Positions 8,337 through 15,436 of a stretch of 64,000 bases of DNA are shown one piece after another (within the stretch, counting starts at the first letter, position 1; each line of letters begins with the position of its first letter). The position numbers were made by a program, and so were the translations under genes. The DNA comes from Myxococcales bacterium (GTDB lineage Bacteria > Myxococcota_A > UBA9042). Location of the stretch: assembly GCA_947491025.1 (NCBI GenBank), contig CANLIC010000004.1:64199-128198 (forward strand). Direction: 5' to 3'. The notes under the pieces are model-generated. The model did no database searches. It was not told where the DNA came from and saw only the letters and a list, made by a program, of their open reading frames with translations.

Positions 8337-9386
8337 ATGTTCTCTGGTTCGTCGCCGACGCAGCCCTCGTTCTTCGTCGGCCGCATCCCCGTCAAGGTCT
8401 CGCCGCTGCACTTGCTGCTGATGGCATTCCTGTTTTACCAGATGCTCGCCCGCAGCGTGATGCTCGGCGTGGGCGCCATCCTCATCGCCAGCTTCTCGGT
8501 GCTCGGCCACGAACTCGGCCACGCCTGGGTCTCGCGCCACTTCGGCCTCGGTGCGGCCATCGAGTTGACGGGCCTCGGCGGGCTGACCAGCCACATGCCG
8601 GCGCGCAACAACCGAGAGCTCTTCTTGATCACGGCCGCCGGGCCGGCGATGAACTTCGCGCTGGCCGCCTTCTTCTTCGCTGCTGGCTTTGTCGCTGCCG
8701 GAATGCTGGCCGAGCTGGTCTACGTCGGCATGTGGATCAACATCGTGTGGGGCATCTACAACCTGCTACCGATCATCCCCCTCGATGGCGGCATTCTGGC
8801 CCTGGTCGTGCTGCGGCGGCTGTTCCGGCAGGGCGACCGCGCTGAGCGCATCGCGCATTGGACCGGCGTCGTCCTCGGCGGGCTCGGGGCCATGTACGGT
8901 CTCGCGACCCAATCGCTGCTGGTCGGCTTCGTGCTCGGCATGGCGGCCTTCGAGAACTGGCGGGCGCTGCAGACGATGGGGCCGGCGCCGGTGCGACACG
9001 AGCGCAAGGCCCACCCGGTCGTCCGCGATCACCTGCAGGGGGCGCGCGACGCCTATGGTCGCAGCGACTTCCACGAGGCGGCCCGCCTCTGCCACCTCGC
9101 CCGGAGCGAGCCCTTCGTCGCCCTCGACGAGATGCGCCAGATTTGGCAGATCTTGGCGCTTTGCGCCGCTCGACAGTCGCATTGGGACGAGGCAATTCGG
9201 CATGCCGAGCGGCTGCCCGACGCGCCCGAGATGGCGCAGGTGCGCGCGGTGGCGCTGCTGGCGCTCGGCGATGCCCAGCGGGCCCGCGCCTTCATCAGCC
9301 AGCCTGCCGCCCGCCACGTGTCGGAGGCGCAACTCGAATCACTGCGGCAGTTGGCGCGTCGGCCTACCGGCGAGGCGGCGCGTTGA
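8337..9386 (+). CDS. M50-family (site-2-protease-like) intramembrane zinc metalloprotease with TPR-like C-terminal tail
   Basis: This is the 3' part of ORF 7152..9386. ATG 8337 is preceded by GCAGGAGG. HExxH (VLGHELGHAW) lies in a TM helix and NLLPIIPLDGG (the LDG motif) in a later helix. The upstream 395 codons of the ORF are Arg/Pro-rich junk. Confidence 0.85.
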   Translation: MFSGSSPTQPSFFVGRIPVKVSPLHLLLMAFLFYQMLARSVMLGVGAILIASFSVLGHELGHAWVSRHFGLGAAIELTGLGGLTSHMPARNNRELFLITAAGPAMNFALAAFFFAAGFVAAGMLAELVYVGMWINIVWGIYNLLPIIPLDGGILALVVLRRLFRQGDRAERIAHWTGVVLGGLGAMYGLATQSLLVGFVLGMAAFENWRALQTMGPAPVRHERKAHPVVRDHLQGARDAYGRSDFHEAARLCHLARSEPFVALDEMRQIWQILALCAARQSHWDEAIRHAERLPDAPEMAQVRAVALLALGDAQRARAFISQPAARHVSEAQLESLRQLARRPTGEAAR

Positions 9387-9456
9387 CGCGTCGACGCTCG
9401 CGGTCGATGATCCCTGTCCCGGCGCCGCTGCGCCGCCACTCGCCGAGGAGCCACCC

Positions 9457-11499
9457 ATGACCACCGCCGCGCGTCGCCCCCCGATCCGCCGCCTTCGGGC
9501 GATCTCGTTGTTGTTGCAGCGGTCCCTTCCTCAACGTACCGTACGTACGCCTCCGGTCCCTCCCTCGCAGCGCCTAGAGCTGGCGCCGAATTCGGCGGTC
9601 GGACAGGCGTTCGTTGGTGGATCCTGGCGCCCCTTCCCCCTTGCCGTCCGCGTCGCGACCTCGCCGCTGGCAGCGCTGCTGGCGCTCAGTCTCGCGATGC
9701 CGGCCATGGCCGCGACCTCGTCGCCGGCCGACGACGCGCGCGTCATCATCAGCGAGGGGGTCAAGGCGCCGGATTACCTCGCGCGGTCGATGGCTTACGA
9801 GGCGCTGGCCTTGGACCGCAAGATCGCCAACGCGCGCCAGCTGCTCAAAGACGGTGAGGAAGATCCGCAGTGGACCGTCAAGTCAGGCGTGGCCCGGGCT
9901 TACATGCGGCTGCGCGATTCGAGCTGGCAGCGCGTCGTCGGCGACGCCATCGGCCGCGCAACGCTCGACCCCCGTGAGGTGCTTCCCGTCCTCGACACGC
10001 TCGCCGACAAGGAGGCCATCGCTTTCTTGCTGCAGCGCCTCGCCGACAAGGAGCTCGACCGCCACGACCGCATCGCCGACGGGTTGGTCGCGTTGGCCCA
10101 TCCTCGGCTCGGCGCGCTGCTGGTCGCTGCGATCGGCCACAAAGATCCGCTGGTGCAGGGCGTCGCCAAGCGCGCGATTCCGGCGCTGAGCGCGGTCCTG
10201 CATGGCGACCACCTGGCGACGCTCGCCAGCAAGGCCGGCGGCAACCCCGTCGTCATCGACATGCTCTGCACCATCGCTGCGACCGCCCCAACCGGTGTCG
10301 ACGTGCGCTTCCTGTCGGCGCTGAAGCCACCCAAGGGCGACACCGGCCTCGCCGAGCGCGTCATCCTGGCCCGCGCCCGCCACGGTGATCGCGCCGTCGG
10401 CAAGCAGCTGCTGGCCATAGCCGCCACACGGGCCGGCGACGCCAAGATCGAAGTCGTCGAGATCTACAAGGGCATCTCGAGCAAGGACGACTCGGAAGCG
10501 ATTCGCAGCCTTCTGGATGAGTCGAGTTCGCCACGCCTCAAGCTCGCGATCTACGAGGTGTTGGCGAACCTGGGCGACCGCTCGGTGGTCAAGCAAGCCG
10601 AGGAGATGGCCGCTGGCACCGACAGCGAGCTGCGTCCGGTCGGCGTCTACTACCTCGGCCGCATCGGTGGCGCCGGGCGCATCGGCGAGATGCACACCTA
10701 CCTCAAAGATGGCATCCCGGAAGTCCGAATCGCCGCGGCGCGCGTGCTGGCCTGGATTGCGTCCAAGATCTCCGCGGCCCCGCTACGCGACGCCCTCGAC
10801 GCCGAGACGCGCGAGGACATCCGCGTCGAGTACATCAAGGCCCTGGCCAGCATCAAAGACGACGAGGCCTTCAAGGTCCTGGTCTTCTACACCCGCGAGA
10901 AGGATGACCTGGTGCGCCAGCGCGTGGTGCGGGCGCTGGCCGAGTCGGGCTCGAAGACGGCGCGCAATGGCCTGCAGACTGCGCTGCAAGATCGCAGCAA
11001 GGACGTGCGGGTCGAGGCGGTGCGCGGCTTCATCCTCTCGGACCCGGCCAACGCTGTGCAGGTTTTTCAGCGCTCGCTGGCCTGGCTGCCGCCGGGCACG
11101 CTGATTGGCATGACCCGCGAGTTCGGCGAAGCCTTTGAGAGCTATCTGGAGTTGGCGCTCTTCGCCAAGTCCATGGAGCTGCGCGAGGAGGCGCTCGAGG
11201 CGCTGCGGCTGCTGCCCAAGAAGCAGCCCGACCTGCTGCGCAAGGTGCTGGCCAGCGCCGACGACGATCAGCTCCGCATTCGCGTGCTGCGACGCCTCTT
11301 TGCCGTCGAAGGCCAGAAGGTCGCCACGGAGGTCAAGGCCGCCGCGCTCTCGACGAGCACGCGCGTCTGCATCGAGGGCGTTCGGATGCTCACCCAGCTG
11401 CGCGGCGACAAAGAGGCCAAGGAGCTGATCTTGCGAAGCATGGCCGCCGCCGACCAGCGCATTCGGATCGCGGCCGCCCTCACCTTCCTCGGTGGCTGA
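9457..11499 (+). CDS. HEAT-repeat protein; N-terminal signal peptide interrupted by the 149-bp element
   Basis: This is the 3' part of ORF 8689..11499. ATG 9457 has a GAGGAG Shine-Dalgarno 6 nt upstream. Repeated HEAT-like units are present (..DPEVRIAAARVLAWI.., ..DDLVRQRVVRALAESG.., ..SKDVRVEAVRGFI.., ..DQRIRIAAALTFLG). Codons 8-58 come from the inserted element. No other ATG/GTG/TTG lies in frame before ATG 9697. Confidence 0.7.
   Translation: MTTAARRPPIRRLRAISLLLQRSLPQRTVRTPPVPPSQRLELAPNSAVGQAFVGGSWRPFPLAVRVATSPLAALLALSLAMPAMAATSSPADDARVIISEGVKAPDYLARSMAYEALALDRKIANARQLLKDGEEDPQWTVKSGVARAYMRLRDSSWQRVVGDAIGRATLDPREVLPVLDTLADKEAIAFLLQRLADKELDRHDRIADGLVALAHPRLGALLVAAIGHKDPLVQGVAKRAIPALSAVLHGDHLATLASKAGGNPVVIDMLCTIAATAPTGVDVRFLSALKPPKGDTGLAERVILARARHGDRAVGKQLLAIAATRAGDAKIEVVEIYKGISSKDDSEAIRSLLDESSSPRLKLAIYEVLANLGDRSVVKQAEEMAAGTDSELRPVGVYYLGRIGGAGRIGEMHTYLKDGIPEVRIAAARVLAWIASKISAAPLRDALDAETREDIRVEYIKALASIKDDEAFKVLVFYTREKDDLVRQRVVRALAESGSKTARNGLQTALQDRSKDVRVEAVRGFILSDPANAVQVFQRSLAWLPPGTLIGMTREFGEAFESYLELALFAKSMELREEALEALRLLPKKQPDLLRKVLASADDDQLRIRVLRRLFAVEGQKVATEVKAAALSTSTRVCIEGVRMLTQLRGDKEAKELILRSMAAADQRIRIAAALTFLGG
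9479..9627 (+). mobile_element. 149-bp non-autonomous MITE-like element, copy 1 (TSD CGCC)
   Basis: About 90% identical to 15288-15436 (14 mismatches and no indels in a hand alignment). Imperfect terminal inverted repeats: CCCCGATCCGCC at the 5' end and GGTGGATCCTGG at the 3' end. Perfect 4-bp direct repeat CGCC at 9475-9478 and 9628-9631. Encodes no ORF of its own. Confidence 0.8.
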
Positions 11500-14035: not shown

Positions 14036-15238
14036 TCAGTCGATCTCGAGGCCCTCGCCGGTGGGCGGCTCACCGCCACGTCCGCCGGTCGCACCGCCAG
14101 CAGGACCCGACACGGGTGCCCGCGGCGGTGCTGGTCGCGACGCGGCGGCGCCCGGTGAAGCGGGACGCGACGCACCACCGCTCGGCGACGCCGGATCGGG
14201 CGTGCGCATCACTGCAGGCCGCACCGGCTCGCTGCGCGTCGCCTCGGTCAACCGCACCTCGGCGCCATCGACACCACGCGCGTAGACGTGCGGCCCTTCG
14301 ACGCGCAGTCGCCCGAGCTCGGCCGGTCCGCCGCGCCCGAGCAGCTCGCGCATCAGGGCTGGGAAATCGAGCTTCAGCAGCGCGTCGACGCCATCGGCGC
14401 CCGCCCCGCTCGGCGCCGCTGCGGTCGCCTGAGACGTCGGCGCCGCTGCCCGTGCCGAGACCAGCGCCGCCGCCGCGATGAGGGCCAGCTGCGCGCCGTC
14501 GTGATGGCGGCCCAGCGCAGCCGCGATCTCATCGAGCCCGGCCTGGCCGTCGCGCAGCTTGCGAAGCGTCTCTGGGCGGCCGTCGGCGCGGTCGATCTGG
14601 ACACCCGCGCAGACGGTGCCCTCGAGCCGGACGTCGGTGAGGTTGGCCTCGCGCAGGTCGACGTCGATCAGGACCGCGTCGTCGAAGTTGGCCCGCAGCA
14701 AGTTGGCGCCGCGCAGATCGACTCCGACCAGCACGGCGCCCGCCAGGTTGGCGTTGTCGAGGACGGCGCCGCCTTGTCGCTGGTCCGTGAACCGGCTGCC
14801 GATGATCAGCGCCTCGGTCAGGTTGCAGTGGTTGAGGTCCGAGGTCAGAAACTCGCTGCCGCGCACCACGGCCCGCGCCAGGTTGGCGTTGGTCATGGGG
14901 GTCTCGACGAAGCGACAGCTGTCGATCATCGCCCCTGGCCATTGCACCGCTTGGGCCTGGCTGGCAGAGATCTCGCAGGCTTGCAGCCGAGCACCTTCCA
15001 GGCGGGTGCCGCGCAGGAGCAGCCCGCGACCCTGCCAGCGATCCGCGCGCAGACGCGGCAAGCGCACGCCGACCAGCTTGGTGCCCAGCATTCGAACGTG
15101 GCTCAGCTGCACGTCGCCGAAGTCCTCGCCCGCGTGGTCGCTGATGTCACAAGGGCCGACCTCCGCTCGCCAGAGACGGCGCGCCCTCAGGGCCGAGAGG
15201 AGGTCGAGGGCATTCTGAATCGAGTCGAGGTCGCTCAT
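14036..15238 (-). CDS. pentapeptide-repeat protein with extra C-terminal domain
   Basis: ORF 14036..15379, with the start moved to ATG 15238 (MSDLDSIQ). Long run of A(D/N)LxX pentapeptides (ANLARAVVRGSEFLTSDLNHCNLTEALIIG.., NANLAGAVLVGVDLRGANLLRANFDDAVLIDVDLREANLTDVRLEG). Confidence 0.85.
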   Translation of the reverse strand: MSDLDSIQNALDLLSALRARRLWRAEVGPCDISDHAGEDFGDVQLSHVRMLGTKLVGVRLPRLRADRWQGRGLLLRGTRLEGARLQACEISASQAQAVQWPGAMIDSCRFVETPMTNANLARAVVRGSEFLTSDLNHCNLTEALIIGSRFTDQRQGGAVLDNANLAGAVLVGVDLRGANLLRANFDDAVLIDVDLREANLTDVRLEGTVCAGVQIDRADGRPETLRKLRDGQAGLDEIAAALGRHHDGAQLALIAAAALVSARAAAPTSQATAAAPSGAGADGVDALLKLDFPALMRELLGRGGPAELGRLRVEGPHVYARGVDGAEVRLTEATRSEPVRPAVMRTPDPASPSGGASRPASPGAAASRPAPPRAPVSGPAGGATGGRGGEPPTGEGLEID

Positions 15239-15287: not shown

Positions 15288-15436
15288 CCCCGATCCGCCG
15301 CCTTCGGGCCATCTCGTTGTTGTTGCTGCGGTCCGGTCCTCAACGTACCGCATGTACGCCTCCGGTCCGGTCCTCGCAACGCCTAGAGCTGGCTCCGAAT
15401 TCGGCGGTCGGACAGGCGTTCGGTGGCGGATCCTGG
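15288..15436 (+). mobile_element. 149-bp non-autonomous MITE-like element, copy 2 (TSD GCTA)
   Basis: Same orientation and length as copy 1. Terminal inverted repeats CCCCGATCCGCC / GGCGGATCCTGG. Perfect 4-bp direct repeat GCTA at 15284-15287 and 15437-15440. Lies in the divergent intergenic region between the pentapeptide gene and the kinase. Confidence 0.8.

Follow-up and report, generated by a model that had tools for sequence, protein, structure and literature searches.

The 64,000-nucleotide stretch analysed here, hereafter the window, lies on contig CANLIC010000004.1 of a Myxococcales bacterium (assembly GCA_947491025.1) and contains, at positions 9479 to 9627, a 149-bp repeat that interrupts the beginning of a gene for a HEAT-repeat protein without breaking its reading frame. 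We conclude, with a probability of roughly 0.9, that this repeat is a copy of a non-autonomous DNA transposon, that is, a miniature transposable element with inverted repeats (MITE), of an apparently undescribed family residing in uncultured freshwater Myxococcota. Assignment to this class follows from the combination of terminal inverted repeats, flanking duplications of fixed length and variable sequence, dispersed copies, and exact empty sites; small size (size classes of 149 to 152 bp and 177 bp) and the lack of a transposase gene are in keeping with it.

The repeat is found twice in the window. Aligned with each other, copy A (9479 to 9627) and copy B (15288 to 15436) extend over 149 nt with no indels and differ at 13 positions (91.3% identity, BLASTN E 4e-57). 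The initial annotation of this DNA, made from the sequence alone, had recognized the gap-free 149-bp pair correctly and counted 14 mismatches, one too many. Sequence likeness stops exactly at the stated element ends, and BLASTN returned no further match to the repeat better than E 0.025 within the 64 kb. The left end, CCCCGATCCGCCGCC, is identical in the two copies. Read as reverse complements, the right end of copy B is CCAGGATCCGCCACC, which agrees with the left end in 12 of 15 nt, and that of copy A is CCAGGATCCACCAAC, with 10 of 15 positions matching. These imperfect 15-bp terminal inverted repeats are conserved at both ends over 20 full-length copies (see below), 18 of which share an identical first 20 nt when aligned. 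Perfect 4-bp direct repeats that differ between the copies, CGCC around A and GCTA around B, were read on both sides, just as first reported. Equally sound is the earlier statement that no transposase is encoded: the element is only 149 bp long, and six-frame translations of both copies revealed no homologue, nothing scoring in a protein collection in which the window's own 680-amino-acid HEAT protein sits in a 90% cluster whose representative lacks the insert.

Empty sites, which the initial annotation proposed to look for in relatives, are available for both copies. A sister species, represented by the 37.5-kb contig L046 and by L047 (NCBI GCA_005777155.1; L numbers denote loci fetched for comparison), shares the gene order of the window over more than 20 kb. 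After removal of 153 bp, corresponding to the element plus one flank, site A aligns to L046 without gaps over 168 nt, and site B does so over 229 nt after removal of the same length. Consistently, the spacer that houses copy B measures 321 bp in the window vs 168 bp in the sister species, so that the difference is exactly 153 bp at each site. Site A is empty in L001 and L002 as well, and nhmmer searches of L046, L047, and L042, a more distant locus that is also syntenic, detected the element in none of them. Copies A and B are true insertions.

The flanks of the wider family tell the same story. Nine of the 20 full-length copies are bordered by perfect 4-bp repeats, and all nine tetranucleotides are different (CGCC, GCTA, TCAT, CCGC, GTGT, TTCG, AGCC, CAGT, and CCAG), which bears out the earlier proposal that the flanks vary from copy to copy. 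When the left flank of one copy was compared with the right flank of another as a control, only 2 of 380 combinations matched. Together with the empty sites in the sister species, this flank test (9/20 vs 2/380) excludes chance. Two further copies have flanks that agree at three of four positions, and one other copy carries a clear 5-bp repeat, GGCAA. No common motif was found among the nine reconstructed target sites.

Could the repeat have been misplaced inside the gene by an assembler, or by a chimeric join? Assemblers do struggle with it: contig L003 from the same genome (Logan contig ERR4405442_94408) stops 29 nt into copy B (L003:15832-15860, equivalent to window 15288-15316), and the element is thus observed to break assemblies of metagenome-assembled genomes (MAGs). 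Nonetheless, we give an artefact practically no chance of being correct. An identical 680-amino-acid product was called on nine metagenome contigs from independent assemblies (Logan, ENA, and NCBI), some of them 0.2 to 1 Mb long, and copy A differs by 12 private substitutions, about 8%, from the consensus of copy B and a third close copy (L005, described below), hence it is not a misplaced copy B. As a separate observation, copies A and B share no run that reaches a typical assembly k-mer length, and L003 ends in copy B; this suggests that a further copy-B-like copy, similar to L005, is present in the sample from which L003 derives.

Turning to the interrupted gene, the frame that starts at ATG 9457 is open throughout the element, leaving a 2,043-nt open reading frame (ORF) intact. 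The ORF is kept because element and duplication add 149 + 4 = 153 bp, or 51 codons, and because the element is read in one of its three frames that contain no stop codon. Deleting 9479 to 9631 (153 bp) in silico yields a protein of 629 amino acids with the N-terminus MTTAARRPFPLAVRVATSPLAALLALSLAMPAMA/ATSS, so the intact signal peptide that the initial annotation had expected upon excision is indeed joined to ATG 9457. The 51 added residues are arginine-rich and strongly basic (10 arginines among 51) and stand before the hydrophobic core, SPLAALLALSLAMPAMA.

Comparison with homologues gave a consistent picture. The 680-amino-acid protein has 35 full-family matches in the protein collection, of which the 33 full-length ones (617 to 655 amino acids) were aligned; with P0039 added, the alignment covers 34 orthologues of the window protein, down to 42% identity. 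The closest homologue, P0001 from the sister species, is 93% identical and 629 amino acids long, and its N-terminus, MTAAALSPLPPAVRALTSPLAALLALSLATPAIA/ATSS, is collinear with that of the window protein minus residues 8 to 58. A short classical signal peptide is present in 34 of 34 orthologues, none of which has a counterpart of the 51 residues; as initially suspected, the segment is not conserved. These findings speak to a reverse scenario in which the 51 residues would be ancestral to the HEAT protein and have been lost in relatives, the copy at 15288 being a partial gene duplication. That the segment is in frame and stop-free would suit such a history. However, its absence from every orthologue, the occurrence of the same DNA in noncoding spacers and in another genome, and the 4-bp duplications at two loci that are both empty in the sister species leave it scarcely credible; the empty sites and the orthologue alignment refute it.

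One detail of the original description did not survive this comparison. It had noted a twin-arginine-like RRxF in the signal peptide, yet the RR is not kept in the 93%-identical sister protein (MTAAALSPLPP..., with AALSPLP at that place), and no RR motif is common to the 34 orthologues, whose signal peptides look like ordinary, short ones of the Sec type. The Tat-signal models of Pfam and NCBIfam gave no match at E <= 10 to the reconstructed, the present, or the sister N-terminus.

How is the gene read today? The sister species has kept both the Shine-Dalgarno-like sequence and ATG 9457, and from a TTG triplet at 9508-9516 to the hydrophobic core the frame contains no ATG, GTG, or TTG, for which reasons translation would have to read through the element; we infer that it starts at 9457 and continues through copy A. 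The 51 residues would then sit in the n-region of a cleavable signal peptide (predicted cut AMA/ATSS), leaving the mature protein unchanged. This may be why the insertion is tolerated, given that the added residues would be removed with the predicted signal peptide; the n-region apparently absorbs 51 foreign residues. Judging by its sequence, the HEAT gene is still in use and under purifying selection, with a ratio of nonsynonymous to synonymous substitutions (dN/dS) of 0.072 at a dS of 0.56 against the sister species, a value that covers the whole time since the split of the two species and not just the time since the insertion. The insertion is not recent, as copy A shows about 8% private divergence. 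It also looks fixed in the sampled populations, because the reconstructed 629-amino-acid empty allele of the window's species is not in the protein collection. We also note unusual, repetitive N-termini in two HEAT orthologues, P0006 (VALCAKVALSVKVALCAKVA) and P0009 (GRRRFGRRQFGRRQFGRW); in this family, changes in length seem to be tolerated in the signal-peptide region generally.

The initial annotation knew of the window pair and proposed a search for further copies. A metagenome scan recovered a third close copy (L005:282-430, on JGI contig Ga0172373_10123945) that shares 97% identity with copy B and has TCAT on either side. In addition, the element's initial 20 nt were run against 185,579 species-representative genomes, which gave 36 matches, 20 of which fall on 16 contigs of a single MAG, "Myxococcales bacterium Baikal-deep-G138"; the other matches are chance hits in coding DNA of unrelated phyla. 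Searching the fetched loci with nhmmer, we found 17 full-length copies in Baikal-deep-G138, with 69 to 73% identity to copy B where BLAST spans the full length. They fall into size classes of about 150 bp, 152 bp, and 177 bp, the last with a 27-nt internal insert. One copy split by an insertion, four truncated copies, and two "solo" left ends bring the total in this MAG to at least 24 diverged copies or fragments. The true number is certainly higher, since four of the copies lack the exact 20-mer and were found only by their proximity to seeded copies. Taken together with copies A, B, and L005, the family comprises the 20 full-length copies referred to throughout. The 3′ 20-mer, AATTCGGCGGTCGGACAGGC, had no match in the genome collection and only L005 in the metagenomes, and collections of plasmids, phages, and viral contigs contained no relevant match to the element.

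With respect to genes, copy A is the only full-length copy (1 of 20) that clearly lies inside a gene in frame; the other 19 are located between genes or at gene ends. Relative to neighbouring genes, about eight copies run in the same and seven in the opposite direction, showing no bias. At L005:278-434, the copy sits precisely where two minus-strand genes overlap by a stop/start ATGA; the one upstream encodes a SpoIIE-type phosphatase. Here, the TCAT duplication (ATGA on the gene strand) restores both the upstream TGA stop and the downstream ATG, so that both ORFs survive, now 149 bp apart and with their overlap lost. More broadly, five of the 20 full-length copies lie 0 to 9 nt downstream of a stop codon (L040:1414-1421, L006:624-631, L037:355-363, L010:6031-6043, and L005:431-434), and in two of these the duplication abuts the stop directly, which may reflect a target preference or simply the survivors among harmless insertions. 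Other peculiarities concern Baikal copies. At L020:5989-6012, a copy is directly preceded by a 9-nt left-end fragment (CCCCGATCC, AAG, then CCCCGATCCGCC), which suggests a nested or aborted insertion, and two independent copies (L030:1151-1239 and L033:916-1002) are truncated alike at model position 87-88, just past the 3′ arm of the inner stem, where a deletion hotspot at the hairpin base may exist.

Beyond its ends, the element has a pronounced internal architecture. Copy B forms a long imperfect hairpin of about 122 nt from element position 3 to 124 (window 15290-15411), followed by a 25-nt 3′ tail (15412-15436) that is not part of the palindrome and in which the true right end is found. 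The imperfect terminal repeats of the initial annotation are correctly placed, but its picture of two short repeats falls short of the palindrome plus tail. In the family alignment, the outer helix, in which the left end pairs with an internal ...GAATTCGGCGG.CGG motif, is nearly invariant, and the apical CGTAC/GTACG stem is conserved across the family. From the outer helix and the structure of the tail, it follows that the end motif occurs twice in the right part, once within the palindrome and again at the terminus. The inner helix, in contrast, differs in sequence among three subfamilies yet still pairs, with seven of eight pairs changed on both sides. Overall, 95.7% of the cells in the alignment are paired, compared to 30 to 44% when the partners are slid by one to three columns. 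The predicted fold of copy B reaches -75 kcal/mol, with a z-score of -4.2 for the plus strand and -5.1 for the minus strand. Copy A, with a z-score of about -1, folds no better than shuffled sequence, its long hairpin being degraded.

The hairpin invites the idea of a structured RNA gene or a regulatory RNA element that has been copied around the genome with the hairpin as its functional product. While the strong fold of copy B and the covariation across the family would fit, Rfam 15 has no match at its gathering threshold anywhere in the window and only noise at E <= 10 around copy A, and no promoter-like or terminator-like site is seen in or beside copies A and B. Nor does an RNA product sit well with the even gene orientation or with two strands that fold equally well (the plus strand is the better one in 11 of 20 copies, Wilcoxon p 0.67), and the spread is already explained by the transposition that the flanking duplications and empty sites reveal. 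We regard an RNA gene as the basis of the family as very improbable, though individual copies may have a role as RNA.

Alternatively, an HUH enzyme such as RAYT or TnpA, rather than a DDE transposase, could move the repeat as single-stranded DNA, which would make it a palindromic element (PATE) that is REP/BIME-like or of the IS200/IS605 type. In favour of this, the long palindrome has been kept across subfamilies by changes on both sides of the inner helix, and transitions at paired sites within subfamilies produced G.U 16 times and A.C only four times (binomial p 0.012), whereas C>T and G>A are equally frequent in unpaired columns (18 each), a hint that pairing is maintained on one strand. 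However, HUH-mobilised elements are not known to have terminal inverted repeats or to cause a target duplication, and they insert beside a fixed short motif. The present family shows clear terminal repeats, nine different 4-bp duplications, and no common flanking motif; moreover, it lacks a GTAG-type REP head, and its strands do not differ in predicted stability. We thus consider such an origin highly unlikely. On the strength of the terminal repeats and duplications, HUH-type elements (REP and IS200/IS605) can be excluded as a family.

Given that neither fold energy nor gene orientation distinguishes the strands, strand-specific selection on the hairpin of the MITE is unproven, the G.U excess being a hint. 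The paired changes would also be explained by co-evolution of the long left and right arms or by homogenisation within the palindrome. In copy A, parallel multi-base changes have occurred in both inner-stem arms relative to copy B and L005 (window 9526-9527 and 9560-9562), converting GGTCCGGTCC to GGTCCCTTCC in one arm and to GGTCCCTCCC in the other. These changes are non-compensatory and abolish the hairpin; conversion between two near-identical direct repeats is one possible cause, selection against mRNA structure near the start codon another. As for the loss of the stem as such, decay after immobilisation and selection against a -75 kcal/mol hairpin 22 nt past the start codon fit equally.

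As to how the MITE would move, a DDE-type transposase encoded elsewhere would bind the ~15-bp terminal inverted repeats (CCNNGATCCRCC...) and make staggered cuts 4 bp, occasionally 5 bp, apart with no evident target consensus, upon which repair would duplicate the target tetranucleotide. In the lineage of the window, two insertions occurred within 6 kb after the split from the sister species, B into a divergent-promoter spacer and A after codon 7 of the HEAT gene. Several observations weigh against this interpretation, the long period covered by the dN/dS value above among them. Only three copies (A, B, and L005) are known in the window's own lineage. No further copy occurs within 10 kb past its right edge, the extension on the left being limited to a 3-kb contig. 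About half of the full-length copies lack a perfect duplication, which we attribute, without proof, to age or ambiguous ends. Terminal-repeat patterns detected neither a transposase nor a full-length insertion sequence (IS) with these ends either within the window or across the ~330 kb of loci fetched, and self-BLAST of ~200 kb of Baikal loci showed no repeat of 220 bp or more. Likewise, ordinary genes, a dnaA-like one among them, border the two "solo" 5′ ends (L024 and L038) in place of a parent IS. With no parent IS found, the transposase family and any current activity are inferred. MAGs often lack IS copies.

The element's ends begin with CC and its duplication is 4 bp, occasionally 5 bp, long. 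CC ends and 4- to 5-bp direct repeats are listed for the IS1380 family in the ISfinder family table, making IS1380 a candidate source of the transposase, although no gene for an IS1380-type or other transposase with the element's ends was found in the window or the fetched loci. IS701, with its 4-bp duplications, fits equally well; this is a lead and not a result. In this context, piggyBac also combines CCC ends with a 4-bp duplication, and IS1380 transposases form its prokaryotic outgroup (PMC10813416).

How does the family compare with known elements? Much is shared with bacterial MITEs such as Correia/NEMIS of Neisseria, ERIC/IRU of enterobacteria, RUP of pneumococcus, and Chunjie of Geobacter uraniireducens: a length of ~150 bp, terminal inverted repeats, a short variable duplication, the lack of a transposase, multiple copies, a long imperfect palindrome, and a mostly intergenic location, to which the L005 copy adds an insertion between two coupled genes that destroyed neither. 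The new family is set apart by the lack of any sequence match in Rfam and in the plasmid, phage, and viral collections, its G+C-rich sequence, its hosts among uncultured lake Myxococcota, and the 25-nt 3′ tail outside the palindrome with a second copy of the end motif. Correia, ERIC, and RUP duplicate a TA target. Different from these three, the duplication here is 4 bp long without a consensus. Size variants with internal insertions and truncated copies, as seen here, have been described for Chunjie and QMITE2 (PMC10969869).

In-frame insertion brings to mind the Rickettsia palindromic elements (RPEs), ~150-bp palindromic repeats that are found in frame within genes and add a peptide to a product that survives (PMC10969869). 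Similarly, the 149-bp subfamily described here always adds 153 bp, i.e., 51 codons, and is open in three of six frames; yet three open frames are not far off the ~1.7 estimated for a 150-nt sequence of the same base composition. Moreover, RPEs reside mostly in ORFs, as opposed to 1 of 20 full-length copies in the present family, there is no sequence relationship, and the ~150-bp and 177-bp classes do not give multiples of 3 once 4 bp are added, unlike a coding repeat of the RPE kind. RPEs are also not known to have clear terminal repeats or duplications. One could still imagine that the palindrome is kept by selection on a single strand, acting as a DNA or RNA hairpin despite DDE-style duplications, and that the 149-bp subfamily is a coding-compatible module like the Rickettsia elements. 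We consider this unlikely; in the case of such a module, insertion would have given rise to a functional signal peptide whose n-region spans about 60 residues.

A further parallel is QMITE1 of Coxiella burnetii, copies of which overlap annotated ORFs and encode basic peptides (PMC5896051). The peptide added by copy A is also strongly basic, but QMITE1 is 300 to 400 bp long and features 2- to 3-nt direct repeats, promoters, and small RNAs, none of which are seen in the new family. More generally, a 2024 review calls in-frame fusions by intragenic MITEs "not unusual," with the RPEs as the extreme case (PMC10969869). A literature search on MITEs in Myxococcota turned up nothing relevant. Like the initial annotation, which did not recognize a described family, and in view of the lack of Rfam, plasmid, phage, and viral matches, we take it that the MITE family appears to be undescribed. 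Apart from minor points, what that annotation observed and how it read the element hold true, each of the checks it suggested that were run having turned out in its favour.

In-frame MITE fusions being documented already, the present one leaves general understanding unchanged and is a clean but ordinary case of element spread. Its value lies in an unusually complete natural example of transposition: one locus offers two insertions, each with its filled and its empty site and with a precise 4-bp duplication, and another genome holds a related many-copy family. The case also gives uncultured freshwater Myxococcota an additional family of mobile elements and provides a natural experiment on signal-peptide tolerance. 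In practical terms, contig breaks that the repeat induces in these MAGs can be flagged with the 20-nt end motif and the nhmmer model.

The coordinates of all features are compiled in the table below. With a window G+C content of 70%, real genes were placed by their third-position G+C.

Table. Elements, flanking duplications, and genes at the two insertion sites (window coordinates).
Feature	Start	End	Strand	Basis
Shine-Dalgarno-like GAGGAG, 6-nt spacer to ATG 9457	9445	9450	+	Read directly; sister has GAGGAGCCCGTCATG
HEAT-repeat gene, 680 amino acids, stop 11497-11499	9457	11499	+	Translation; third-position G+C; Pfam HEAT_2 1.9e-24
Target-site duplication CGCC of copy A, left	9475	9478	.	Read directly; sister species with single AGCC there
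MITE copy A, 149 bp, after codon 7 of HEAT-repeat gene	9479	9627	+	nhmmer E 6e-32
Left terminal inverted repeat of copy A, CCCCGATCCGCCGCC	9479	9493	+	Read directly
Right terminal inverted repeat of copy A, reverse complement CCAGGATCCACCAAC	9613	9627	-	10/15 match to left end
Target-site duplication CGCC of copy A, right	9628	9631	.	Read directly
Pentapeptide-repeat gene flanking copy B, ATG at 15238	14036	15238	-	Third-position G+C; Pfam Pentapeptide 3e-20; synteny with L042 and L046
Target-site duplication GCTA of copy B, left	15284	15287	.	Read directly
MITE copy B, 149 bp, spacer between divergent genes	15288	15436	+	BLASTN and empty site in sister
Target-site duplication GCTA of copy B, right	15437	15440	.	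Read directly
Ser/Thr protein kinase gene flanking copy B, probable TTG start 15560	15560	16564	+	Third-position G+C; Pfam Pkinase 7.5e-30; start from comparison with L042 and L046

Some minor observations concern sequences outside the element. A large ORF of the Baikal MAG contains five tandem 18-bp repeats with ACCCGACCCGTCGCC on the minus strand (L024:2800-2886); these are unrelated to the element and surfaced as weak matches to the terminal-repeat pattern. In the window, a spacer of 70 bp (9387-9456) separates an M50 peptidase gene from the HEAT gene, vs 164 bp in the sister species (L046:9837-10000), and the extra 94 bp of the latter are repeated in no fetched locus. Finally, a sigma-70-like site, TTGACG-17-GATGAT, is located at window positions 9383-9411.

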